A stretch of DNA of 64,000 nt, from NCBI GenBank assembly GCA_964355175.1, contig CAYHBZ010000002.1:396537-460536 (forward strand). The letters are read 5' to 3'. The position numbers and the translations under genes are program-made. Numbering within the stretch: position 1 is the first letter of the stretch; each line of letters opens with the position of its first letter. The DNA is from an uncultured Gammaproteobacteria bacterium. Lineage in GTDB: Bacteria; Patescibacteriota; Patescibacteriia; Magasanikbacterales; GWA2-37-8. Below the pieces are notes generated by a model. That model was given only the letters and a program-made list of their open reading frames with translations, was not told the DNA's origin and searched no databases. Positions 7,955-58,947 of this stretch are shown here, piece by piece.

Positions 7955-8072
7955 AATCAGTTAAAATCAAATTTAACACCACGAATTATTGCGCCAGGTT
8001 TTGAGAGAGGCCCTAGCAATACATATAGACAGCTAGGTTAATTCTCTCTCAAAGGAGAATTTTTTACTTGTC

Positions 8073-8084
8073 GTTCTTTACAAT
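8073..8084 (+). promoter_or_regulatory. GTTCTTTACAAT box, copy 1 (followed by long leader hairpin, about 8093-8140)
   Basis: Exact 12-mer shared with 8941-8952 and 10397-10408. Confidence 0.5.
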
Positions 8085-8245
8085 AAATAGTGCTGAGCCC
8101 ACATGAGATCAAGAATTTCTTGATTTGATGCGGGTTCAGTGCACACAGCATTGACGTCCTCCGCGATTTTGCGGATTCGTTCAGTGCTGCGTACTGCAGC
8201 CAGGTCACGCGCCCACCTCAGTGGCGTTTCGTTCAGGAGTTTCCG

Positions 8246-8779
8246 ATGACCACCGCAAAGCACCCCGATCCGAACCATCCGGACCCCGGCACCACCGAAG
8301 AGCCCGTCGTCGACAAGGCGAAGGGCGACACGGTGGTGACCACGACGACCACCACGAGCGTTTCGTCGGCCGAGCCCATCAAGGCAAAGCCGGTGGCGAC
8401 CACCGACACCACGGCTGGCAAGACGGCGACCCAAGAGCCCAAGAAGGGTGGCTGGCCGCTCGGGACCATCGCCGGAGCTGTCGTGCTCGGTCTTCTGCTC
8501 CTCGGCGGCGTCTACTGGTTCGGCAGCCACAACAGCAGCACGCCGGTCGTCCCGCCCATCGCGGTCGCCGGTTGCTGTCTTCCCCAGGCCACCGTCGCGA
8601 GCCCCTGCTGCCCGCAACCGCCGGCTCCGCCCCCGCCGCCCGCCCCCGTCGTCAAGAAGAAGACGGTCGGCGAGTGCGTCGCCCAAGCCGTCGCCGGCAT
8701 GGAGGTCGCCCATGAGGACGACCGCCTCGCCGCGATGGACGGCGCCCGCGAAGAATGCGAGGAAGAATACGGCAAGTAG
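8246..8779 (+). CDS. GC-rich cassette A: bitopic membrane protein (Thr/Pro-rich N-terminal region, one TM, Cys/Pro-rich C-terminal region), no recognised family
   Basis: AGGAG 6 nt before ATG; strong G/C at codon position 3 in this frame only; TM WPLGTIAGAVVLGLLLLGGVYWF preceded by KKGG. Confidence 0.65.
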   Translation: MTTAKHPDPNHPDPGTTEEPVVDKAKGDTVVTTTTTTSVSSAEPIKAKPVATTDTTAGKTATQEPKKGGWPLGTIAGAVVLGLLLLGGVYWFGSHNSSTPVVPPIAVAGCCLPQATVASPCCPQPPAPPPPPAPVVKKKTVGECVAQAVAGMEVAHEDDRLAAMDGAREECEEEYGK

Positions 8780-8940
8780 CCGTTCCTGTCTCGCGTCGCT
8801 ATGTCGGTTCGGCGGGCCCTCAGCAATGAGGGTCCGCCGGCCGACTGGCTCGAATAGGACCTTTGTAGATTCCACTAGGGAAACTCCAAAGGTCCCCTAG
8901 ATTACATTCTTTTGGAAACAAGAGGATGTTGATAGGAAAA

Positions 8941-8952
8941 GTTCTTTACAAT
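8941..8952 (+). promoter_or_regulatory. GTTCTTTACAAT box, copy 2 (TTGATA 12 nt upstream)
   Basis: Exact 12-mer; about 35 nt upstream also similar to the copy 3 region. Confidence 0.5.
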
Positions 8953-9196
8953 TAAAACCAACAAAATTTTTTCCCACCTAAAAAGAATTATTATTTATAG
9001 TAATTCACTCTCGGTGGGAAAAAGTGTGGCGGAAATTCCGTTGCATAGCCTCCGACAGAGTCCCAATTGGGGCAAGTGCCCCGCGTGCGGGCTACTCTGT
9101 TACAGCGACCATTTCTGGGAAGCTGACCGAACGGCCCGCACGGCCGGTGTTCCAGTGTCTTGGTTTCGTGGGGTGAAAGTCCCCTGGAGTACAGCG

Positions 9197-10192
9197 ATGA
9201 ACAAGAATTCGAAGTTCCACAACCTCAGCATCTTGCTGACCCTGGCCATGGGGATCATGGTCGCTTCCAATTCCTACGCCGACGTGGCCACGGCTCGCGC
9301 TCGTGCCGAAGCCGCTCGTAGCCAGGCCAATCGGGCTGAGGTGAAAGCGGTCGACGCACAGACTGCGGCCAACGCGGCCAAGACCGGCGCCACCAACGCC
9401 CAGACCGCGGCCGATCAGGCCAAGGTCGAAGCGACCGCGGTGGGCACCAAGGCGGCCACTGACCTCGCTACGGCGATCCGCGCCCTCAACGGTGCGGTCG
9501 GCGGTGCGCGTGCGGCAGCGGTCAACGGTGATCGTCAGCTCGAGCGCAAGTTCAAGGCGGAGGCCGAGCGCCTTCAGACCGAGATCGAAGCGCTCAAGAA
9601 GCGGGCGCAGCACGAGTGTGCGGCGTTCGATGACAAGGGCAGCCAGGCGGCCTGTCTGACCATGCTCGAGAAGATCAACGCCAAGAACGGCGAAGTCACC
9701 ATGCACGGGCAAGACAAGGACACGGAGGTCCAGATCGCCAAGGTGGGACAGCAGTCCAAGGTGGTCCAGGAGATCTTCGACAACGCAAACCAAAACATGG
9801 ACGCCATCAAGGCGATCCAAATGGGTTGCGTCAACCAGGCCTTCGTCGACAAGGACGGCGTCAGCAAGAGCAAGTGGGAATGCCCCAAGGACATGAAGCG
9901 CGGCCCGCAGTTGCGCTACGAGCTCACGAACGTCTCGAAGTACGGCGACCACAGCGTCGTCATCGAGCCGGCCGAGAGCGGTGGCAATTCCAAGTGGGGC
10001 AAAGTGCTCGGCTTCGGCGCCATCGGTGGTGCTGCTGGCGGTGCTCTTGGCTGGGCCTTCTTCCCGAACCATGAAACCATGGAAGATGGCAGCGTCATGC
10101 ACCGGAATTACACCGGTCTCGTCGCTGGCACGGCCATCGGTTTCGTGGTCACGGCGGTGGCCACCCTGGTCATCGAAGAACTGACCGAATAG
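9197..10192 (+). CDS. GC-rich cassette B: secreted Ala-rich coiled-coil protein with C-terminal Gly-rich hydrophobic anchors, no recognised family
   Basis: GGAG 7 nt before ATG 9197; signal-peptide-like MNKNSKFHNLSILLTLAMGIMVASNSYA; GC3-biased frame; 9014-9196 treated as 5' leader. Confidence 0.65.
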   Translation: MNKNSKFHNLSILLTLAMGIMVASNSYADVATARARAEAARSQANRAEVKAVDAQTAANAAKTGATNAQTAADQAKVEATAVGTKAATDLATAIRALNGAVGGARAAAVNGDRQLERKFKAEAERLQTEIEALKKRAQHECAAFDDKGSQAACLTMLEKINAKNGEVTMHGQDKDTEVQIAKVGQQSKVVQEIFDNANQNMDAIKAIQMGCVNQAFVDKDGVSKSKWECPKDMKRGPQLRYELTNVSKYGDHSVVIEPAESGGNSKWGKVLGFGAIGGAAGGALGWAFFPNHETMEDGSVMHRNYTGLVAGTAIGFVVTAVATLVIEELTE

Positions 10193-10396
10193 GTCAACGG
10201 GTGAGGAGATCACCCCAAAGGATTGCAAGTGTGTTGGTTCACTTGCGCCAAATCTCGGTGTAGCTTATCTTGTCCCGCATTCGCGGTACGAGAGAAAGTT
10301 CACTAAACCGGTGGCGTGAACGATGGCTCAAATAGAGCTGTCGGTCACGCCCCAACAACTATCTTCTGTTTTTCAAACAGGGGATTGAGTTGGTAA

Positions 10397-10408
10397 GTTC
10401 TTTACAAT
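10397..10408 (+). promoter_or_regulatory. GTTCTTTACAAT box, copy 3 (TTGAGT 12 nt upstream; followed by hairpin, about 10426-10476)
   Basis: Exact 12-mer. Confidence 0.5.
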
Positions 10409-10641
10409 TTATTTCGTTAGATTTTCTCATACAGGACATAGGATATTTTTTGTATCTTGTGTCCTGTGTGAGAAGCCCCCAGTGGGGGTTGCCTGGGTGA
10501 AAACCCGACTAGGTCGGGGCGTTCGCTCCGGCAATTCCTCACTAGGGTGGTAAAAACGCCATCCGGACGGGTCAACTTCGACCTTTTCGGTAAAGTAGCA
10601 GTGTCTTTCTTTGTCCGCCCTTTAGTGGGCCGGAGGTTCTG

Positions 10642-12063
10642 ATGCGTAACCGGTTTCAATTGGTCGCGACTCTCGCGATGGCGGCTGCAGCCTGTGCAGC
10701 GTGTGGTGTCATCGAACATCCGGCCGATGCGGTCGTGATCGTGGTCGAAAAAGACGCCAGCAGCCAGGATGTCCAGCAGGACAACGGTCCGGCGCAGCAG
10801 CCCGAGATCGCGCAGACGGCCGACATCGCGCAGGACAACGGTCCGGCGACGAAGCCTGAGTGCGCGGTCGACAGCGACTGCGACGACAAGAACCCCTGCA
10901 CGACGGACGTCTGCGGCAGCAACGCCTGCGTCCACGTGGCCAACTCGGTCTCGTGCGACGACGGCAACGCCTGCACCAGCAACGACAAGTGCGGCTCCGA
11001 GAAGTGCTCGGGTGACCAGAAGGTCTGCGACGACAACAACCCCTGCACCGACGACGGCTGCGTCAGCGACGGCACCTGCCTGCACGGCGTCAACATCGTC
11101 AACTGCGACGACAGCGACGCCTGCACGGAAAAGGACCAGTGCGCCAACGGTAAGTGCGTCGGCCAGGTGAAGTCGTGCGACGACAAGGACAACTGCACGA
11201 CGGAATCGTGTGACAAGCTCAACGGGTGCTCGTCCACTCCGGTCGTCTGCCAGGACGCCGGGGATCCGTGCACGACGGAATCGTGCGACAAGGCAACGGG
11301 CAAGTGCTCGTCCACCACCGACTGCGACGACAAGGACGTCACCACGTTGGATGCCTGTGAACCGCTGCTCGAGACCGTGGGAATGGAGAAATGCCTCCAC
11401 ATCAAGATGCAGACCAAGTGCACCAAGAATGCGGATTGCGACGAGGACGGCGATCCGTGTTCGTTCGAGTTCTGTTCCCAGATCGGCTACTGCGCCAGCA
11501 AGTGGAAGTTGTGCGATGACGGAGACTACTGCACCCAGGACGAATGCGTCCCTCAGGCCGACTACGCCTGGTGCAAGAGCACTCAATACTCATGCGACGA
11601 CTACAACGCCTGCACGCTGGACTCCTGCACCAACGGCTACTGCCAACACAAGGGCAACGCCGCCATGTGCGACGACAAGGACTCCACCACCGCCGACTCG
11701 TGCAACCCTTCCCAGGGCTGCGTCAACACGCCGATTCCTCAACCCGGCGTGCCGAGCTCGACTCCTCCCTCGAATCCCTCGACCTGTGCGGCCTGGGGAG
11801 CGTGGATTTACTTGCCCACGGGCAACTGGCGCGGCGGCTATGACCTGACCGGTTCGTCTTCGCAAGAAACGGACCTGACAATCAGCGTCGACCAGTGGTA
11901 CGGCTTCAGCAACGCTCATTCTGTGTGGGCGTGGCTCAAGCCGTGGGGCAGTGCGGTACCGGCAAGCGTCAAGTGCACTGATCGGTGTGGTGTGGTCTTC
12001 CCCGCGAAGATCAGTGCCATGGCGGGTGGCTTCATCGCCATCTGCAGCACCGACCAGAAGTAG
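10642..12063 (+). CDS. GC-rich cassette C: Cys-rich repeat lipoprotein/secreted protein (tandem C-D-D-x-N-x-C-T-x-D-x-C units, Dicty_CTDC-like)
   Basis: GGAGG 5 nt before ATG; N-terminus MRNRFQLVATLAMAAAACAAC (signal/lipobox-like); 12 or more repeats of ~24 aa with spaced Cys; unrelated ~120-aa Trp-rich C-terminal domain. Confidence 0.75.
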   Translation: MRNRFQLVATLAMAAAACAACGVIEHPADAVVIVVEKDASSQDVQQDNGPAQQPEIAQTADIAQDNGPATKPECAVDSDCDDKNPCTTDVCGSNACVHVANSVSCDDGNACTSNDKCGSEKCSGDQKVCDDNNPCTDDGCVSDGTCLHGVNIVNCDDSDACTEKDQCANGKCVGQVKSCDDKDNCTTESCDKLNGCSSTPVVCQDAGDPCTTESCDKATGKCSSTTDCDDKDVTTLDACEPLLETVGMEKCLHIKMQTKCTKNADCDEDGDPCSFEFCSQIGYCASKWKLCDDGDYCTQDECVPQADYAWCKSTQYSCDDYNACTLDSCTNGYCQHKGNAAMCDDKDSTTADSCNPSQGCVNTPIPQPGVPSSTPPSNPSTCAAWGAWIYLPTGNWRGGYDLTGSSSQETDLTISVDQWYGFSNAHSVWAWLKPWGSAVPASVKCTDRCGVVFPAKISAMAGGFIAICSTDQK

Positions 12064-12330
12064 GCGGGGCTCAGGGGGTCTAACGGAAAAAGTTTTTGCT
12101 CTTTGGTAAAAGCAAACGGAAGGAGGTGTTCCTTTCGATAGGCCATTTCGGCCACCCATGCCAGAGGCGAGCGATCGCTAAAGGCTGGTCAACTAGGGGT
12201 GGTGTTGCTTCACCGCACACCACCCCGACCATCTCTAGCTCACAATATCTGTTGTGATCTGAAGATGGAAATAGCAATATGTCCATGACAAAAATACCAC
12301 CCTTCTCTCGGGCGGTTTTTTGTTTTTTAA

Positions 12331-18095: not shown

Positions 18096-18125
18096 CAGTT
18101 ATTTTAGCGGGTATTTGCTTGCATA

Positions 18126-18154
18126 TTGACAGGCGCTGGTTTTTTTGATTTAAT
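18126..18154 (+). promoter_or_regulatory. sigma70-like promoter of cassette D
   Basis: TTGACA, 17-nt spacer, TTTAAT; same hexamers as cassette E promoter. Confidence 0.55.
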
Positions 18155-18306
18155 AATAAGTCGTTTGTTCTTTATTTGGCAGGATAATTTTGGATTAAAA
18201 TTTTTAATTCAGAGTTATCGTGCCAACTTTCTCAATGCGTGTCGGCGAAATGCGTCGATATGTAAAGAGAGGTGCGAGAGCCTACATGGTAGGCAGGAGA
18301 GCAGGA

Positions 18307-19122
18307 ATGGCAGACAGCAGCCACAACGTTACTCAGGTCGGCATCACCGTCGGGCCGCCCAACGCCGATCTCGGCAGTGTGGTGGTTCGTCAGGAGGCGG
18401 CCAGGGCGGATCTCAATGAGCGGCGTACGCATCTCAGCTTGGTTGTCAAGCCCTCGGTCGATGATCTGGTCGCGCGGCTGAATGTCGAGCGGCAGGAAGT
18501 CGACCGCATCGGCGCGCTGGTCGATGCGGTAGAGCGCGAACAGGCGAAGAGCGTCAAGCACTTCGAATCGACGCTCGGCGGGCAGGCGCGGCTCTGGAAG
18601 AAGGGTTTCGACGCCCATGAGCGCTCGATCTTCTGGGTCAAGCTCCTCGGCGTCGTCGGCCTGGTCCTGGTCGGTATCGTCCTGGTCCTGAACCTGTCGT
18701 CCTCCTCGGACATCTCCACGGCCAAGTCGGAAGCCATCTCGGCCAAGACCACCGTGGCGGAGTTCAAGAAGGCCACCCAAGGCGAGGTCGTCAAGATCAA
18801 GAAGAGGCTCGATGCCAACAAGCTCGACATGGATCAGCTCAAGGATCAGATCAAGGTCGTCGGGCTCAAGGCTGACAAGAGCGTCGTCACTCGCATGGGC
18901 GAAGAGCTCAAAGAAGCCAACATCGAGCAGGACGGTCGGATCCAGGACATCGCCACCGCGATCATGGGCAAGGCCGACATAGCCGATCTCAAGAGCGTGA
19001 GGAGCGCAGTCGCGCAGGTTCGCCGGGCCAACGGCAAGGTGAACACGAAGATGACCAGGCTCGAAGCTCAGGTCCTGGAGCTCAAGGCCCAACTCCAGGC
19101 CCAACAGCCCAAGACCATGTAG
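18307..19122 (+). CDS. GC-rich cassette D: bitopic membrane protein with extracytoplasmic coiled coil, no recognised family
   Basis: AGGAGA 6 nt before ATG 18307; TM WVKLLGVVGLVLVGIVLVLNL; heptad-like K/D/L-rich C-terminal half; GC3-biased frame. Confidence 0.65.
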   Translation: MADSSHNVTQVGITVGPPNADLGSVVVRQEAARADLNERRTHLSLVVKPSVDDLVARLNVERQEVDRIGALVDAVEREQAKSVKHFESTLGGQARLWKKGFDAHERSIFWVKLLGVVGLVLVGIVLVLNLSSSSDISTAKSEAISAKTTVAEFKKATQGEVVKIKKRLDANKLDMDQLKDQIKVVGLKADKSVVTRMGEELKEANIEQDGRIQDIATAIMGKADIADLKSVRSAVAQVRRANGKVNTKMTRLEAQVLELKAQLQAQQPKTM

Positions 19123-19185
19123 TCCGTTCCCGATCTGTTCGGGCACTTGTAGTTTAGCCTTGATTTCTGAAGGCAAAAGCTCGGT

Positions 19186-19300
19186 GAGGACGCAAAATCC
19201 CCCCAAGGGTGTGTCGTTTACTCGACACTACCTGCTTAGTTCGCAAAAAATTGTTTGCTGAGCAGAATAAAAAATCCGCTATTATGGTGGATTTTTTAAT
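19186..19300 (+). repeat. 3' repeat R1, copy 1 (three hairpins, the last a terminator)
   Basis: About 80% identical to 20118-20238; bulged hairpin GGTGTGTCG-TTTACT-CGACACTACC; ends AAAAAATCCGC...GGTGGATTTTTT. Confidence 0.6.
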
Positions 19301-19330
19301 CTAAAATATGCTGTTTTTAGGTCAGTAGTA

Positions 19331-19359
19331 TTGACAAAGTAGGATTTTTATGTTTTAAT
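19331..19359 (+). promoter_or_regulatory. sigma70-like promoter of cassette E
   Basis: TTGACA, 17-nt spacer, TTTAAT. Confidence 0.55.
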
Positions 19360-19504
19360 AGTTCATTAGATTGTTCTTTTTAATCAATTCGCGCGACAAT
19401 TATAAATTAAAATTTTTCAATTTATAATCGTCGTGCGAATTTCAGTTTATCAATGACGGCCAGTCGGAGGTTCCGATTGGTTCAGCTCTTTCTGCGAGGT
19501 GAGC

Positions 19505-20074
19505 ATGGTTGATTTCAATCCCCCGGATCCAGTGGATCCAGAGAAGAAAAAGAAGCCTTCGTCGGCTGTGGAGACAGACCACAATTGGGAAGCCTGGGCC
19601 AACGATAATTCGGTCGATGACGGCAGTCATCCTCTGCCTGGTGAAGCCGAATACGTCGGACGGTCCGACCTTCCCATGACACGGGCACAGAAAGAGCGCA
19701 TCGCCGCGATCGTAGTCGGTACGGCCTTCCTGGTGTTGGTTTTCTTTGTCATCAATTTCGCTATCGGCAACAAGCTCAAGCATTCTGAAGCGGCCTCGTC
19801 CAACGAGGCTGGCAAGCAGAGCGCTCAGGCAAGTGCCGAAGTAGAATTGAAGGCAGAAGAAGCCGCCTCAGAGCAGGATCATACGGTCTCGCTGCCGGAT
19901 CACGCTTCGCAGGAAGATGATCTGGACGATGCTCGCGCGACCATCAAGGTCGTCGGTTTGGAGAAACGGCGCGTTCGAGATCCAGAGATGGAGCGGATCG
20001 CCGCAACCATCAAGATCGTGCCACTGCGTGTCAGTCCTGTCGCGGTACCGCTTCCAGCGGCCGCTACTCAGTAG
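19505..20074 (+). CDS. GC-rich cassette E: bitopic membrane protein with acidic C-terminal region, no recognised family
   Basis: GAGGTG just before ATG 19505; TM IAAIVVGTAFLVLVFFVINFAIG preceded by RAQKER; GC3-biased frame. Confidence 0.6.
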   Translation: MVDFNPPDPVDPEKKKKPSSAVETDHNWEAWANDNSVDDGSHPLPGEAEYVGRSDLPMTRAQKERIAAIVVGTAFLVLVFFVINFAIGNKLKHSEAASSNEAGKQSAQASAEVELKAEEAASEQDHTVSLPDHASQEDDLDDARATIKVVGLEKRRVRDPEMERIAATIKIVPLRVSPVAVPLPAAATQ

Positions 20075-20117
20075 TAGTCAAACATACTTTGAACCTAAAA
20101 GTGTGTGAGACTCCTGA

Positions 20118-20238
20118 ACAGGACAAAAAATCCCCAAAAGGGTGTGCCGACTGAAAAGTCGGCACTACCTGCTTAATCAATAAAACATTGTTTATTGAGC
20201 AGAATAAAAAATTCACTTTGAAAGGTGGATTTTTTAAT
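20118..20238 (+). repeat. 3' repeat R1, copy 2
   Basis: Same three-hairpin layout as 19186-19300; stem 1 differs by paired substitutions (GGTGTGCCGAC / GTCGGCACTACC). Confidence 0.6.
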
Positions 20239-20245
20239 TAGTTTT

Positions 20246-21136
20246 TTATTGTCCGGTAATTAGGCACGCTACCGGTCCGTTAAATTTCCAATTATTTTTT
20301 ATGGCTTGATGTAATCCTGCCACGGCCAAAGCGCTGTTGGGTGAAAGTTTTATTTTTTCTGTTCTAGATGTCAGTTGTATTGCTGAGGTTATTTCTGTAT
20401 TGCCGGCTACCCAACCAAACCCACGATTTTGTTTTAACGCTTTTAGTACGGCTGGTTTTCTGAGTGCGATTTTATCCACTATCGCTGTTGCCAGAGATTC
20501 ATTTTCTATTTCACAGCGTAATTGTGAAAAATTTTGCGCCATTGGATGTACTGATGCGGTCTGTACTATATGTATCTGAATTTTTAATTTTAATTTTTTA
20601 AATCCTTCGTCGAGACCCAGAGCGGTAGTACCAGAAGAAGTCGGCACAAACACCGCGGACAGGTTTTTTATTTTGGATAATTCTTTGGCCAGTTCAAAAT
20701 ATCCAAGTAGAGCGATGTCATCGGTCGATTGACGCAGCCATAGCGCTCGATTATTTTTTTCTAACTGAAAAGCGGATTGTTTGGGTTTTTTTATTTGGGT
20801 CAGAGTGATATTTCTATCCACTAGTTTTTGTAATTTTTTTAGTTTGGCTAAATCTATTTTTTCACCCACAAAGATTTGCAGAGTAATTTTATTTTTACTT
20901 TTCTGGTTCAGTTTTTTGATATAGAACGCGCTGGCGAGAGCCGCGTTGCCGGAAGACGAAACTACAAAATCCTTTGTCCCTGTTTTGAGGTGAGCATCAA
21001 TCATGATTGGCAAAGAGCGGCCCTTGTGTGACAGTAGCGGGTGTAGATCTTCACGCTTAAAATACAGCGGCTGTGAGAGGCCGATGGTCTGGGCTAATTT
21101 GGGATGTTTGGTTTGGGGAGTGAGCATACTTGCCAA
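20246..21136 (-). CDS. PLP-dependent enzyme, Trp-synthase beta-like fold (threonine synthase/cysteine synthase-like)
   Basis: LLSHKGRS (Lys) and VSSSGNAALA motifs typical of PALP-family enzymes. Confidence 0.55.
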   Translation of the reverse strand: MASMLTPQTKHPKLAQTIGLSQPLYFKREDLHPLLSHKGRSLPIMIDAHLKTGTKDFVVSSSGNAALASAFYIKKLNQKSKNKITLQIFVGEKIDLAKLKKLQKLVDRNITLTQIKKPKQSAFQLEKNNRALWLRQSTDDIALLGYFELAKELSKIKNLSAVFVPTSSGTTALGLDEGFKKLKLKIQIHIVQTASVHPMAQNFSQLRCEIENESLATAIVDKIALRKPAVLKALKQNRGFGWVAGNTEITSAIQLTSRTEKIKLSPNSALAVAGLHQAIKNNWKFNGPVACLITGQ

Positions 21137-24840: not shown

Positions 24841-25008
24841 ATTATTAGACGGTATTTTTTTACATTGAACAAGCGAGGAAATAATTTGTGAGCCGTGAGG
24901 CGTGGCTAGCCCTGCTGTTTGAGGAGCCGAGCGACGAGTTCAGGGCTAGAGCCGAGTGGGTTGCAAATTATCCGAGCGGTTCACTGTAAAAAAATACCGT
25001 CTAATAAT
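24841..25008. repeat. palindromic GC-cored intergenic element E1
   Basis: Perfect 24-bp terminal inverted repeat (24841-24864 / 24985-25008); ~100-nt core homologous to 35968-36066. Confidence 0.65.
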
Positions 25009-35927: not shown

Positions 35928-36104
35928 AAATAAATATTTCCCCTGAACGAGCCGCTGAAAATCCGAGCAAATAATTTGTGAGCCGACGAGGCGTCTCTGG
36001 CCGTGCTGTTTGAGGAGCCGCGCGACGAGTTCACGGCCAGAGTCTCGACGGGTTGCAAATTATGCGAAGATTTTCACAGGCGAGAGAAGGGGAAATATTT
36101 ATTT
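35928..36104. repeat. palindromic GC-cored intergenic element E2
   Basis: 16-bp perfect outer inverted repeat (35928-35943 / 36089-36104); core homologous to E1 with paired substitutions. Confidence 0.65.
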
Positions 36105-56121: not shown

Positions 56122-56206
56122 GGAGAGGTCGCATAGTGGCCGAGTGCGCCGCCTTGGAAAGGCGGTATACCGCAAGGTATCGAGGGTTCAAATCCCTCTC
56201 TCTCCG
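56122..56206 (+). tRNA. tRNA-Ser (anticodon GGA), long variable arm, CCA not encoded
   Basis: Hand-folded: acceptor GGAGAGG/TCTCTCC, anticodon stem CCGCC/GGCGG with loop TTGGAAA, 16-nt variable arm, T-arm GAGGG-TTCAAAT-CCCTC. Confidence 0.85.
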
Positions 56207-56276: not shown

Positions 56277-56405
56277 ACCAGATAAAAAAATAATTCTTCA
56301 TAAAAACACACCGTCGGGTGTGTTTTTATATTGACAAAAATGTATTTTTAGTATAGGCTCTAGCCTGATCGTTCTCGCGGATTTCTCGCGCTACAGGAGG
56401 ACATC

Positions 56406-56774
56406 ATGGCAGATTCTCTGCCGTTCCAAGAAGATCTGCGTAAGCCATTCCACATCTCAGTCTGCGACCGGATCGCTCTCTGCCTCACGGCAATGAGCAT
56501 CTCCGGTGGAAGGGAGATCCCGCTCGGCATCCAGGAGGTGACCAGAGACCTGGATCTCTTGGACAAGACCAAGGTCCCGGCCAAGGAACTGCCCAGTGTG
56601 ACAAAGGCCCTCTACGGCCTGCGGGTGATGTACGGCCCTCTCATGCCGACGGTTTCTCAGCGCCTGACCCAATCGATCGACCTCTTGGTCGTGTATCAAG
56701 AGGAGCTGGCCGAGGATGGCAAGCTGGATCGCGACCTCGTGTGGTTGCCGCCTGTCGTCGACCCGGTAGCCTAG
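56406..56774 (+). CDS. GC-rich cassette G: 122-aa soluble protein, no recognised family
   Basis: AGGAGG 5 nt before ATG; GC3-biased frame; TTGACA at 56331. Confidence 0.6.
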   Translation: MADSLPFQEDLRKPFHISVCDRIALCLTAMSISGGREIPLGIQEVTRDLDLLDKTKVPAKELPSVTKALYGLRVMYGPLMPTVSQRLTQSIDLLVVYQEELAEDGKLDRDLVWLPPVVDPVA

Positions 56775-56900
56775 CTGGTCTGTAGATTTTCACCCGGTCT
56801 TCGTCTATGTCCGGGTTGAGAGGTGTTCATACACCACTCCGTCCCGACTTAGTCGAGACGTGAATCACCGCAAGGTAGTGACGAGAACATCAGACATTCA

Positions 56901-56970
56901 GACTGTTCGCGCTCACTTAAGATTATAACTTGATTATAGTTTTAAGTGACGAACAGTCTTTTTGTTTTTT
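56901..56970 (+). terminator. long hairpin terminator of cassette G
   Basis: AGACTGTTCG..TCACTTAA-(AT-rich apex)-TTAAGTGACGAACAGTCT followed by TTTTTGTTTTTT. Confidence 0.6.
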
Positions 56971-57041
56971 CTAAAGGATATTTTATAGATACGGATGGCA
57001 ATACTTTTGGTTTGCATCAGCCGGATGAAAAGGCGGCATAA

Positions 57042-57070
57042 TTGACTTTTTTGAATTTAATCGCTAAAAT
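57042..57070 (+). promoter_or_regulatory. sigma70-like promoter of cassette H
   Basis: TTGACT, 17-nt spacer, TAAAAT. Confidence 0.55.
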
Positions 57071-57105
57071 GGTGTTCAGCCATTTTGGCTTTTTGGAGTT
57101 TCGCC

Positions 57106-57327
57106 ATGAGTGTAAAATATCGTCCGGGAACCGGCAGGGAGCCGCGCATCTTCCATGAGAGTATGGGCTTGCCCAGCCGGACGGTCGTTCAGATCGACTG
57201 GTGGACCTGTCCGAACCTGATCGTGAAGGATGAGCAGTTCGGAAATCGCGAACTCTGTGACTTTCAGAACCCGTCTTGGGAACACAAGTGCCAGGGTTGC
57301 GGTGCCGATCGTCCCGATAAGTCCTAG
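57106..57327 (+). CDS. GC-rich cassette H: 73-aa protein with RanBP2-like zinc-ribbon (WWTC...C-x3-N-x6-C-x2-C-GA-x-RP)
   Basis: TGGAG 7 nt before ATG 57106; GC3-biased frame; C-terminal motif shared with cassette I. Confidence 0.6.
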   Translation: MSVKYRPGTGREPRIFHESMGLPSRTVVQIDWWTCPNLIVKDEQFGNRELCDFQNPSWEHKCQGCGADRPDKS

Positions 57328-57335
57328 GAGGACTC

Positions 57336-57362
57336 ATGCGTATCCGCGCACCCCCGCCTTAA
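57336..57362 (+). CDS. putative arrest-type mini-ORF MRIRAPPP*
   Basis: Stop of cassette H embedded in TAGGAGGA; ATG 3 nt after the SD; 8 codons ending RAPPP-stop; homologous to 58764..58793. Confidence 0.4.
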   Translation: MRIRAPPP

Positions 57363-57387
57363 AAAAGGCACAGGGAAGTAGCGGAAT

Positions 57388-57453
57388 AAAAACCGCCGCC
57401 AACCTGTTTTGTTTCCAAATACAATTGGAGATGGGATAGGCTGGCGGTTTTTT
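57388..57453 (+). terminator. long hairpin terminator of cassette H
   Basis: AAAACCGCCGCCAACCTGTTTTGTTTCCAA...TTGGAGATGGGATAGGCTGGCGGTTTTTT. Confidence 0.6.
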
Positions 57454-57455
57454 GT

Positions 57456-57484
57456 TTGACTTCCAGAGAGGGATTTGATAGTTT
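57456..57484 (+). promoter_or_regulatory. sigma70-like promoter of cassette I
   Basis: TTGACT, 17-nt spacer, TAGTTT; -35 abuts the terminator T-run. Confidence 0.45.
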
Positions 57485-57523
57485 TGATGGGCGCAAATTT
57501 CGCGCCAACCAGTGAGGAACACA

Positions 57524-57925
57524 ATGACTTGTGGTCAACGTCGCAAACTGCGTCTTGATATGATCGTGGTCAAGGGCTGGAACGGTCGTCGCCTCTCCAA
57601 GGGGTGTCGGAAGTACATACGCCGTCACCTGCCTCTGGAATGGCAGGCGATCGAGGATCGTGCTCAACAGGAGCGTGAGCTGGTGCGGCAGATCGAGCTG
57701 CACAAGGCGGCTGCTCGCAACAAGCAGACGGCTACGCGGCCGAGCTTCTCCGCGCCGTCGTTCGCTACGGCGAAGCCTGCACCGGTGCCGGTCAAGCCTC
57801 CGCGGGATCCATGGTGGACCTGCAAGGCCGAAACCAAGGGAGGTTATTTCTCCGGCGCCTGCAACGAGCTGAACTACAGTAATACCTCCTGCACCTACTG
57901 TGGTGCGGCTCGCCCGGCAGCGTGA
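57524..57925 (+). CDS. GC-rich cassette I: 133-aa basic protein with C-terminal RanBP2-like zinc-ribbon
   Basis: GAGGA 5 nt before ATG 57524; C-terminus PWWTC..(11)..C-NEL-N-YSNTS-C-TY-C-GAARP, paralogous to cassette H tail. Confidence 0.6.
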   Translation: MTCGQRRKLRLDMIVVKGWNGRRLSKGCRKYIRRHLPLEWQAIEDRAQQERELVRQIELHKAAARNKQTATRPSFSAPSFATAKPAPVPVKPPRDPWWTCKAETKGGYFSGACNELNYSNTSCTYCGAARPAA

Positions 57926-57931
57926 GGAATC

Positions 57932-57958
57932 ATGCACTACTCCACCGGACCGCCTTGA
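57932..57958 (+). CDS. putative arrest-type mini-ORF MHYSTGPP*
   Basis: Stop of cassette I embedded in TGAGGA; ATG 3 nt after; 8 codons ending GPP-stop. Confidence 0.35.
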   Translation: MHYSTGPP

Positions 57959-57988
57959 AATATAGGTGGGCAGGGCGGAGGAAGATTA

Positions 57989-58053
57989 CATCGACCACCA
58001 AACTGCTTTGTATGAAAATTTTTTATATAGAGCAGAGTGGTCGATGTTTTTTT
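57989..58053 (+). terminator. long hairpin terminator of cassette I
   Basis: CATCGACCACCAAACTGCTTTGTAT...ATATAGAGCAGAGTGGTCGATGTTTTTTT. Confidence 0.6.
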
Positions 58054-58064
58054 ATTTGAAATAC

Positions 58065-58093
58065 TTGACAAAAGCTCTATTTTTGTCTATAAT
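58065..58093 (+). promoter_or_regulatory. consensus sigma70 promoter of cassette J
   Basis: TTGACA, 17-nt spacer, TATAAT. Confidence 0.6.
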
Positions 58094-58197
58094 CATTAGT
58101 TAATTAATGGTCATCATATGATGCACGCCCAAAGAGGTTGGTCGTGTTTCATACCGTGATCCGTTAAGGAACATGGGCAACTCGCGTAGGGGGAAAT

Positions 58198-58746
58198 ATG
58201 TTGGAAATCATTTTGGAACCGAAGCTCAAGAACAAGTTCCTGACCGCTCGGGTCAAGGCGCATTGCGGGGTCATGACATGGTCGTTTTGCACCGCTGAAG
58301 GCGGTGTGGCGATCATCGAAGCGTTCGTCCGCGAACGCGTCTGGGGCTGGCAGGAAACTCGTCCGCTCTGCCGCCAGATGGAAGCGACTTTCCCCAAGGA
58401 TGCCAGCAAGTTGGCCGCCTGGCTCAACATGTTCGAGTCCTCCTCGTGCGATGTGGCCGTTCAGCCCATCCATCTCGTGGATCAAGCCGGCGCTTCCCTC
58501 GCTATCAGTGGCAACCAGCTGCATGATGGTGTGGTCGCTACGATCGGTACGGCCGTCTGCATGCTGGATCACTACCTCGTTCGCGGGGTGTTGCGCAACG
58601 GCGACTGCATCTCCGCGACGCAGCAGATGCTCCAGGCTGGCATGACCGACGTCATTTCGGAAAAGGCGTTTCGTGCTTTGACCGGTGGCATTCCGCTGTC
58701 CGGTTTCAACGAGTACGACTACCGTCGGATGGTCGGTCAACTCTAG
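58198..58746 (+). CDS. GC-rich cassette J: 182-aa soluble Cys-containing protein, no recognised family
   Basis: GGGGG 4 nt before ATG; clear GC3-biased frame. Confidence 0.65.
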   Translation: MLEIILEPKLKNKFLTARVKAHCGVMTWSFCTAEGGVAIIEAFVRERVWGWQETRPLCRQMEATFPKDASKLAAWLNMFESSSCDVAVQPIHLVDQAGASLAISGNQLHDGVVATIGTAVCMLDHYLVRGVLRNGDCISATQQMLQAGMTDVISEKAFRALTGGIPLSGFNEYDYRRMVGQL

Positions 58747-58763
58747 TCAAAGAGGAGGAGAAC

Positions 58764-58793
58764 ATGGTTTCTATCCGTGCTCCGCCCCGATAA
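58764..58793 (+). CDS. putative arrest-type mini-ORF MVSIRAPPR*
   Basis: AGAGGAGGAG then 3 nt then ATG, 17 nt after cassette J stop; 9 codons containing IRAPP. Confidence 0.4.
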   Translation: MVSIRAPPR

Positions 58794-58824
58794 AGGGCGA
58801 TAGGAAGGAGTACGGAGACAAAGA

Positions 58825-58888
58825 AAGCCGCGCACCAACCTATTTTGTTTCTAAATTTTTGGAAATAGAATAGGGTGCGTGGCTTTTG
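58825..58888 (+). terminator. long hairpin terminator of cassette J
   Basis: AAAGCCGCGCACCAACCTATTTTGTTTCTAAAT...GGAAATAGAATAGGGTGCGTGGCTTTTGTTTT; homologous to 57388-57453. Confidence 0.6.
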
Positions 58889-58947
58889 TTTTCCCCTATA
58901 CAAAACCTCATTTTTTGTGTAGGATAAGGGTTGATAACTTAATCAAT

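Follow-up and report, generated by a model that had tools for sequence, protein, structure and literature searches.

Mini-ORFs with a conserved RAPP/RGPP-type core between orphan genes and intrinsic terminators of Candidatus Magasanikbacteria: a candidate leader-peptide attenuator at the 3′ end

The 64,000-nucleotide (nt) stretch of DNA analyzed here (the window; positions 396,537 to 460,536 of contig CAYHBZ010000002.1, assembly GCA_964355175.1) originates from an uncultured bacterium whose relatives are annotated as Candidatus Magasanikbacteria (Patescibacteria, candidate phyla radiation or CPR). It has a GC content of ∼40% and encodes GatCA, Lgt, a TrhO-like rhodanese, the SUF operon and tRNAs. 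Three GC-rich islands (55–62% GC), located at 8000–12200, 18100–20250 and 56300–58900, each consist of a run of orphan genes on the plus strand. Three of these plus-strand genes, H (57106–57327), I (57524–57925) and J (58198–58746), carry at their 3′ ends a short open reading frame (mini-ORF), which together with the RNA structure that follows it is the subject of this study. The cassettes H, I and J are bordered by an AT-rich promoter-like region on one side and by a long hairpin terminator on the other. H and I have a RanBP-like zinc-ribbon C-terminus in common, and J is unrelated to both. Pfam searches with nine cassette proteins returned only Dicty_CTDC repeats in the protein of cassette C and a weak RanBP zinc ribbon in H. 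Since a homologue search with the I protein retrieved itself and one partial relative only, we regard the cassette genes as true orphan genes.

A preliminary description of the window had reported three mini-ORFs preceded by a Shine-Dalgarno (SD) sequence, and both the reading of the sequence and the ORF listing confirm them. All of their elements lie on the plus strand. In cassette H the SD sequence AGGAGG (57326–57331) overlaps the stop codon TAG of the orphan gene (57325–57327, within tAGGAGGactcATG) and is followed after 4 nt by the mini-ORF MRIRAPPP (57336–57362, ATG at 57336 and TAA at the end), whose R-A-P-P codons occupy 57345–57356. In cassette I the SD sequence GAGGA (57924–57928) likewise overlaps the stop codon, here TGA (57923–57925, within TGAGGAatcATG), and precedes MHYSTGPP (57932–57958) with T-G-P-P codons at 57944–57955 and without Arg. 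In cassette J AGGAGG (58753–58758) lies 6 nt past the stop codon TAG (58744–58746) and 5 nt ahead of the ATG of MVSIRAPPR (58764–58793; R-A-P-P codons 58776–58787), so that 17 nt separate stop and start. The cores of H and J (ATC CGC GCA CCC CCG versus ATC CGT GCT CCG CCC) differ at third codon positions only, which bears out the mostly synonymous differences noted before. The earlier characterization of the peptides as proline-terminated does not capture the conserved feature: R, Q, P, PL, W or NSGG can follow the two prolines, and the constant part across the mini-ORFs is x-[A/G]-P-P. Among all ORFs of 4–14 codons on both strands of the window, exactly these three combine an SD sequence with Pro-Pro in the last three residues. 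In ∼450 kb of DNA, read on both strands, [A/G]PP occurs among 969 SD-preceded short ORFs (duplicate loci counted in) in copies of the 3′ element only, and RAPP, RGPP and TGPP have no occurrence in 13,900 amino acids of the ordinary proteins of the window.

The mini-ORFs are part of a 3′ element of ∼130–150 nt, referred to here as the module. With 11 additional distinct copies from relatives it is represented by 14 distinct sequences of six lineages, which sit behind at least five unrelated families of GC-rich orphan proteins. The copies came from orthologues of the J protein (74–86% identity) with their contigs, from a 20-nt terminator-hairpin pattern that is blind to the mini-ORF and was scanned over one genome per species, and from orthologues of the flanking TrhO gene, which gave locus L039 with two modules and locus L046 (the TrhO relatives P0013 and P0014, available as gene tables only, were left out of the module comparison). 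The terminator pattern led to two new modules, at loci L019 and L021, behind unrelated GC-rich ORFs in other metagenome-assembled genomes of Magasanikbacteria; no part of either locus occurs in the window. Since both were found with a DNA pattern of the terminator only, they were not picked for having an ORF. Nine of the 12 matches in this genome-collection scan were due to chance, as were all 16 loci matched in JGI metagenome contigs, which lie in unrelated DNA. A hidden Markov model of the terminator family matched nothing but module copies in ∼170 kb of related DNA, and every matched copy with available upstream sequence has the mini-ORF.

The peptides of the six lineages are MRIRAPPP (lineage H), MVSIRAPPR, MVSIRAPPQ, VSIRAPPQ with a GTG start, MYSIRAPPR and MVSIRAPP (J), MHYSTGPP, MRYSTGPP, MKHPTGPP and MKISTGPPNSGG (I), MPKIRGPP (K, from L019), MSARAPPPL (M, from L021) as well as MFIRGPPW and MSIRGPP (N, from L039 and L046). 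Five of the six lineages encode (I)R[A/G]PP and the I lineage TGPP. The assignment to the RAPP/RGPP arrest core, R-(A/G)-P-(P/G) with an invariant Arg, therefore stands for H and J, which have RAPP in the window, and extends to RAPP or RGPP in K, M and N elsewhere; RGPP is found in three further copies of two lineages (L019 of K, L039 and L046 of N). It does not extend to the I-type peptide, since Thr replaces Arg in all four I copies.

The loss of the frame in further homologous 3′ modules had been named as evidence that would speak against the mini-ORFs, and all 11 new copies retain start, frame and motif. Each of the 14 copies has an SD sequence (AGGAGG, GAGGA or AGGAG) 3–5 nt before the start codon (13 times ATG, once GTG) and a frame of 7–12 codons. 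The spacer between orphan stop and mini-ORF start is the fastest-evolving part of the module (12–39% divergence in the J group), yet SD sequence and start codon are kept. Across lineages the core is written with CGC/CGT (or ACC/ACT), GCA/GCT/GCC (or GGA/GGT), CCC/CCG/CCA and CCG/CCC/CCT/CCA; third positions vary at all four codons, while R/T and A/G are the only differences at first and second positions. Five synonymous and no non-synonymous core changes separate the members of orthologue groups, and the flanking codons 2–4 and the last codon vary freely (V/Y, H/R/K, Y/H/I, S/P, F/S, R/Q). Length changes within the ORF comprise whole codons, such as the loss of TGG in the N copy of L046 and the change of CGA to TGA in L047; in the I copy of L039 the stop is lost and the frame extended by four codons. 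Indels of 1 nt are seen outside the ORF. In the J orthologues the third position of the Ala codon (U, A or C) disrupts a stem pair that no compensating change restores, an observation explained by coding and not by a model based on RNA only. Extension of the orphan protein by stop-codon read-through was considered and rejected, because the frame offset between main ORF and mini-ORF is 0, 1 or 2. By this comparative evidence the mini-ORFs are real, conserved coding units under selection at the peptide level, and presumably they are translated. Conservation of the amino acids rather than of the nucleotides is also a feature of RAPP-type arrest peptides.

RNA structure had been posed as the alternative to a selected peptide. 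The structure is real but not an alternative, since peptide and RNA are both conserved. In the J group, divergence amounts to 25–45% at 4-fold sites of the adjacent gene, 3–17% in the mini-ORF, 5–20% in the next 38 nt and 3–10% in the terminator, and as judged from these values the whole module is under purifying selection. The three window modules fold with z-scores of −5.5 to −9.8 relative to dinucleotide shuffles into a hairpin 1, which has the stop codon in or close to its loop, and a long terminator hairpin with a U tract. Hairpin 1 of H (57343–57385) pairs the C-rich codons (segment 1) with the purine-rich AAGGCACAGGGAAGUAGCGG (segment 2, 57365–57384) and has the stop codon at the loop; the intrinsic terminator (57393–57453) comprises segment 3 (57393–57420), segment 4 (57424–57447) and the U tract (57448–57453). 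CCUGU of segment 3 is complementary to ACAGG of segment 2 and to AUAGG of segment 4. Hairpin 1 of I (57940–57984) pairs CUCC.CC...CCGCCU with AGGUGG....GG.GGAG (segment 2, 57964–57984), its terminator (57989–58053) has arms at 57989–58018 and 58021–58046 and a U tract at 58047–58053, and CUGC of segment 3 is complementary to GCAG of segments 2 and 4. Hairpin 1 of J (58774–58815) is built from the outer helix CCGUGCUCC/GGAGUACGG and the inner helix CGCCC/GGGCG with the stop codon in the loop. AUAGG of its segment 2 (58795–58815) is exposed in the internal loop, and the stretch AUAGGAAGGAGUACGG of segment 2 is able to pair with GCCGCGCACCAACCUAU of segment 3; the J terminator (58827–58892) has arms at 58827–58856 and 58858–58883 and a U tract at 58884–58892. 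The inner arms of hairpin 1 covary in folds of the individual sequences (GCCUU/AAGGC, CCGCCU/AGGUGG, CCGCCA/UGGCGG, CCGCUCU/AGAGCGG and CGCCC/GGGCG). In a search of the window against Rfam 15 the gathering score was reached by two tRNAs only, and the best sub-threshold matches between 56700 and 59000 were terminator-like (SpF43 with 33 bits versus 70, DUF3800-IX with 20 versus 37).

The purine-rich segment 2 is complementary both to the coding arm (segment 1) and to the 5′ arm of the terminator (segment 3). This pairing was analyzed in 13 sequences, which comprise all copies but the J copy of L047. Unguided RNAduplex predictions gave the same collinear 2:3 helix in 13 of 13 sequences, consisting of xYAGG/CCURx, GG/CC across an AA/AA loop, and a G-rich run paired with the C-rich base of the terminator. 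The key pair of this helix is UA in eight sequences and CG in five, without a mismatch, and the neighboring pair is GC in five, AU in four and GU in three, with one mismatch. A C in segment 2 goes with a G in segment 3 in H, M, the I copies of the window and L008 and the N copy of L039, and a U with an A in four J sequences, the I copies of L006 and L039, K and the N copy of L046. The covariation score of the 2:3 helix is 0.333, compared to 0.21 in shuffles (0 of 500 reach 0.333) and to a maximum of 0.163 when the partner is slid, and it is comparable to that of the terminator helix. Between orthologues, some changes involve segments 2, 3 and 4 at once, as a terminator/antiterminator pair would demand: GCAG/CUGC/GCAG in the I module of the window corresponds to GUAG/CUAC/GUAG in that of L006, and the N copies of L039 and L046 differ alike. 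In H, M and the I copy of L008 segment 3 is matched better by segment 2 than by segment 4. With a ribosome mask at the predicted arrest position (P site at the first Pro codon) and segment 4 omitted, 11 of the 13 sequences are predicted to form 2:3 helices of 10–16 bp, and hairpin 1, when folded before segment 3 exists, takes up 4–13 of the same nucleotides of segment 2, likewise in 11 of 13. The predicted topology is that of a leader-peptide attenuator with 1:2 as anti-antiterminator, 2:3 as antiterminator and 3:4 as terminator.

Whether ribosomes would arrest on the mini-ORFs can be judged from what has been published on RAPP-type arrest peptides. The Arg is irreplaceable in ApcA, ApdA, ApdP and SecM, while an exchange of Ala for Gly is tolerated or even strengthens the arrest. 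Of the arrest cores, RAPP and RGPP tolerate the widest range of contexts; they are active in several N-terminal contexts and reported as refractory to EF-P, and RGPP is the strongest known variant and the most depleted tetrapeptide of bacterial proteomes. The dependence on EF-P proposed earlier would thus apply at most to the Pro-Pro component and not to RAPP/RGPP arrests. In ApdP only the five residues ahead of RAPP (QSKCI, residues 126–130) matter, and Ile often stands ahead of the Arg in the mini-ORFs, as it does in ApdP (QSKCI-RAPP) and SecM (GIRAGP). Transferred from the ApdA/ApdP literature, the arrested ribosome would have CCC (57351–57353) in the P site and CCG (57354–57356) in the A site on the H mini-ORF, and the predicted P-site codon on the J mini-ORF is CCG (58782–58784). 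We consider RAPP-type arrest plausible rather than established, because just three to four residues precede the Arg while RAPP alone is reported to be insufficient. The canonical mechanism should not apply to the I lineage, for which a polyproline or Pro-Pro-stop pause is the fallback; consecutive Pro codons in the strong context [A/G]PP are present in all 14 copies. Between the orphan stop codon and the predicted P site lie 26–31 nt in H, I, M and N and 37–42 nt in J and K. The shorter spacing equals about one ribosome footprint, so that a ribosome terminating on the orphan gene would come up right against an arrested one. In the literature we found no paper on arrest ORFs of such size, at such a position or in Patescibacteria.

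The preliminary description had called the arrangement unrecognized, also because known arrest peptides are located upstream of the gene they control. That the mini-ORF lies at the 3′ end of an orphan gene remains true, but the logic is recognizable as that of the leader ORF of a four-segment attenuator-like RNA, and in that sense the mini-ORF would also have an upstream position, relative to the terminator and the next transcription unit. We lean towards the view that the module is a leader-peptide-type transcription attenuator driven by a minimal RAPP/RGPP arrest ORF, which is coupled to the stop codon of the orphan gene. A ribosome that has finished the orphan gene would re-initiate, or a fresh one would initiate, at the strong SD sequence and ATG; re-initiation is suggested by the overlap of stop codon and SD sequence in 8 of 14 copies. 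This ribosome would read six or seven codons and arrest at R-A/G-P|P, where it would cover the C-rich codons of segment 1 and prevent the formation of hairpin 1. The freed segment 2 could then pair with segment 3, a pairing that the covariation supports, which would delay or prevent the terminator helix 3:4 and let RNA polymerase pass the U tract into the next unit. If segment 1 carries no ribosome, both hairpin 1 and the terminator would form and the transcript would end. The steps at which arrest would alter termination, and any signal that modulates them, are predictions from the pairing scheme. As arrest at this motif needs no ligand, the simplest candidate for a signal would be whether translation keeps pace with transcription; the supply of prolyl-tRNA or a factor that rescues the peptidyl transferase center, such as an ABCF protein, are other candidates. 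More tentatively, we regard it as possible rather than probable that six or seven residues, fMet-x-x-I-R-A/G-P, are enough for arrest, and that CPR bacteria use them as a ligand-free sensor of a ribosome following the polymerase, making the cassette terminator translation-dependent.

Several observations weigh against an attenuator of this kind. A promoter-like −35/−10 pair follows directly after the H, I and J terminators; the H and J pairs reach consensus in a scan (J with a perfect TTGACA-17-TATAAT), while the I pair was read by eye and is absent from the scan output. TrhO moreover retains its own promoter in relatives without a cassette, and expression of the downstream units therefore needs no read-through. 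The I lineage keeps the module although Thr stands in place of the irreplaceable Arg. It has been published that the RAPP core alone is insufficient and needs an N-terminal neighboring segment, and the mini-ORFs offer only three to four residues ahead of the Arg, fMet included, compared to the five of ApdP. In most copies only 3–9 nt lie between the arrest position and the stop codon (18 nt in the I copy of L039), so that stalled and terminating ribosomes would differ by dwell time and not by position. Full-length minimum-energy folds retain the terminator (−22 to −39 kcal/mol) with or without a ribosome mask; a thermodynamic switch was rejected on this ground, as the whole terminator persists in the masked full-length fold, and any switch must be kinetic. 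The 2:3 helix is in several copies also the minimum-energy nascent fold without a ribosome, and the duplex energies of the 2:3 helix do not surpass those obtained after dinucleotide shuffling of the G-rich segment 2 (mean z −1.0). The windows for the covariation analysis were anchored by hand, and an unsupervised MAFFT/RNAalifold analysis of the nascent segment, in which segment 2 was misaligned, recovered no covarying helix.

Part of these observations would also fit other explanations. The same attenuator layout could work with a generic proline-codon leader, in which two or three consecutive Pro codons cause a pause sensitive to EF-P or prolyl-tRNA, of the kind proposed for mgtL and mgtP of Salmonella, rather than a RAPP-specific arrest. 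[A/G]-P-P is the sole element common to the six lineages and the I lineage has TGPP without Arg, known RAPP arrests need more N-terminal context than the mini-ORFs offer, and 7 of the 14 copies end in Pro-Pro-stop. However, a plain Pro sensor has no need of R and A/G and would usually contain more Pro codons, while the mini-ORFs retain the Arg in five of six lineages with synonymous change only (CGC/CGT), with Ile or Ala ahead of it, and RAPP and RGPP are precisely the two strongest arrest cores, the latter being the tetrapeptide that bacterial proteomes avoid most. We consider a generic proline-codon leader unlikely. Still somewhat less likely, in our judgment, is a ribosome parked in the 3′ untranslated region (UTR) without any antitermination. 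An arrested ribosome or hairpin 1 would in this case cover the ∼60 nt from stop codon to terminator and stabilize the orphan-gene mRNA or tune its output, and the 2:3 complementarity would be a folding intermediate or incidental. This explanation agrees with the intact terminator in all full-length folds, masked or not, with the promoters of the downstream units and with the distance of about one footprint between orphan stop and P site (26–31 nt in H, I, M and N), owing to which a parked ribosome would not block the termination of the following one. It leaves unexplained the mismatch-free 2:3 covariation, which in three copies is stricter than that of segment 4, and we know of no precedent for the stabilization of an mRNA by a ribosome stalled at its 3′ end.

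Very improbable is an element that acts through its RNA only, either as a conserved double-hairpin 3′ UTR and terminator or as a small RNA derived from the 3′ UTR, in which the mini-ORF would be a by-product of a C-rich stem arm. While the Pro codons do form the 5′ arm of a GC-rich hairpin with covarying arms, and the whole module, non-coding parts included, is more conserved than synonymous sites, such an element does not account for the SD sequence and start codon in 14 of 14 copies in the midst of the fastest-evolving spacer, where ATG changes to GTG only. Neither does it account for the three-base period of variation in the core, for indels that stay in frame or for the uncompensated Ala third-position changes (U/A/C) that break a stem pair, and the motif it would produce by chance is the strongest known arrest core, absent from the 13,900 amino acids of ordinary proteins. 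Two further possibilities were rejected: a steric block of the terminator by the stalled ribosome, since its leading edge would lie ∼25–30 nt upstream of the stem, and a cistron starting after the SD-like segment 2, since a start codon follows segment 2 in no copy.

The attenuator reading places the module between two known groups of regulators. With the RAPP-type arrest peptides (ApdA, ApdP, ApcA, SecM, CruR and the RAPP/RGPP upstream ORFs of Streptomyces) it shares the C-terminal R-A/G-P-P, the conservation at the peptide level and the proximity of the motif to an mRNA hairpin that is stall-sensitive, as predicted here. These peptides, however, have a length of 30–300 amino acids and contain a signal peptide or a membrane segment; pulling force or a ligand releases them, and their stall exposes the SD sequence of a downstream cistron. 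The mini-ORFs have 7–12 codons and no targeting signal. What follows them is not a cistron but an intrinsic terminator (the SD-like segment 2 has no start codon after it); they are coupled to the stop codon of the upstream orphan gene and in one lineage lack the Arg. With the classical attenuators trpL, hisL, pheL and thrL the module has in common a short SD-led ORF that immediately precedes an intrinsic terminator, with its stall codons placed in segment 1 and its stop codon at the 1/2 loop, and competing 1:2, 2:3 and 3:4 helices ending in a U-tract terminator. The classical leaders sense charged tRNA by runs of cognate codons and stand at the 5′ end of a biosynthetic operon without another promoter. 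The module, by comparison, comes after an ORF and ahead of units with promoters; its stall codons encode an arrest motif, and its terminator greatly exceeds the 2:3 helix in stability.

Other leaders come close in single features. In mgtL and mgtP of Salmonella, Pro codons of a short leader ORF slow the ribosome and choose between stem-loops that decide on the continuation of transcription; both belong to the 5′ leaders of operons for Mg2+ transporters and virulence, where they are responsive to EF-P or the supply of proline. A RAPP core and a coupling to an upstream gene are missing from them, but they represent the nearest precedent for the sensor. The nearest precedent that we can name for the position is the intercistronic attenuator of rph-pyrE in E. 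coli. There, as in pyrBI, the terminator lies just past a reading frame and its efficiency is set by how closely the finishing ribosome follows RNA polymerase; the terminator hairpin is prevented sterically by the ribosome itself, and the signal comes from polymerase pausing that depends on UTP. In the module, a separate arrest-motif mini-ORF instead precedes the terminator stem by ∼40 nt and would work via an alternative helix. The msrD and mef leaders resemble it in having a short leader ORF (6–20 codons), a nascent-chain-dependent stall and control of termination, the latter two being predictions for the module, and the same holds for vmlR, lmo0919 and TnaC/SpeFL, of which TnaC and SpeFL act on Rho. 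The antibiotic-inducible leaders and TnaC/SpeFL need a drug or metabolite in the tunnel, whereas the motif of the module arrests without ligand. As far as its predicted elements allow to say, the module works like a leader-peptide attenuator with a RAPP-family core, yet it is a member of neither family. The earlier interpretation thus keeps its peptide-level selection and its RAPP/RGPP core, and loses the I peptide as a RAPP motif and the EF-P dependence of the arrest.

The comparison of loci also gave information on the cassettes. The island at 56.3–58.9 kb begins directly after a tRNA gene (56122–56206). Whole cassettes are present or absent at this site in the relatives: the loci L041, L044 and L048 have no cassette there, L010 has J only, and L039 has an I-like cassette and N. 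Positions 56946–57041 hold the remnant of the C-terminus of a glyoxalase-family gene (ending in DTDGNTFGLHQPDEKAA and a stop), which has been cut short beside cassettes G and H; L008 (821–1219) and L039 (8097–8495) carry an intact version of the gene at this position. At 1284–1640 of L008 an H-like zinc-ribbon gene is directly followed by an I-type module (MKHPTGPP) without an I gene, compared to 57106–58060 of the window. This arrangement points to recombination of H with I at their homologous zinc-ribbon 3′ ends, or else to a duplication in the window's lineage. The 5′ UTR of J (58094–58197, ∼100 nt) is conserved across all J orthologues and holds the palindrome GGTCATCATATGA as well as CATACCGTGATCCGTTAAGGAACATGG; it may be a structured leader.

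Other cassettes differ at their 3′ ends. Cassettes D and E have a different 3′ module (19222–19297 and 20159–20234), 75% identical over 76 nt (TCGRCACTACCTGCTTA...GAGCAGAATAAAAAAT...GGTGGATTTTT) and without a mini-ORF, which constitutes a second family of 3′ ends. The motif YTGTAGWTT (TTGTAGATT, TTGTAGTTT, CTGTAGATT) occurs soon after the stop codons of the cassettes A, D and G (approximately 8866–8874, 19147–19155 and 56789–56797), and these three cassettes are without the RAPP module. Cassette C (10642–12063) encodes a lipoprotein-like protein of 473 amino acids with cysteine repeats of the CDDxxxC type (Pfam Dicty_CTDC, E 5e-25), a fold type known mostly from slime molds. In otherwise AT-rich DNA, a GC-rich pair of 55 nt each (24897–24951 and 35988–36042; GAGGCGTS.CTRGCC.TGCTGTTTGAGGAGCCG.GCGACGAGTTCA.GGC.AGAG) is 87% identical and 11 kb apart.

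The RAPP/RGPP arrest peptides described so far are secreted or membrane proteins of considerable size, encoded ahead of the gene under their control. In uncultured Patescibacteria, the core has been kept by selection in at least six lineages of the module with no more than three to four residues in front, which makes the mini-ORFs candidates for a minimal arrest sequence. If this is true, they would represent an undescribed use of the motif, namely the control of an intrinsic terminator at a 3′ end instead of the unmasking of a ribosome-binding site. Frames of 7–12 codons are missed by gene callers, and the present ones are recognizable from comparative data alone. If the more tentative sensor reading holds, insertable gene cassettes would carry the module as a Rho-independent device for polarity or insulation, joined to the stop codon of an orphan gene that is a recent acquisition. 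The module also offers a handle on how GC-rich orphan-gene cassettes are expressed and insulated in an AT-rich genome.

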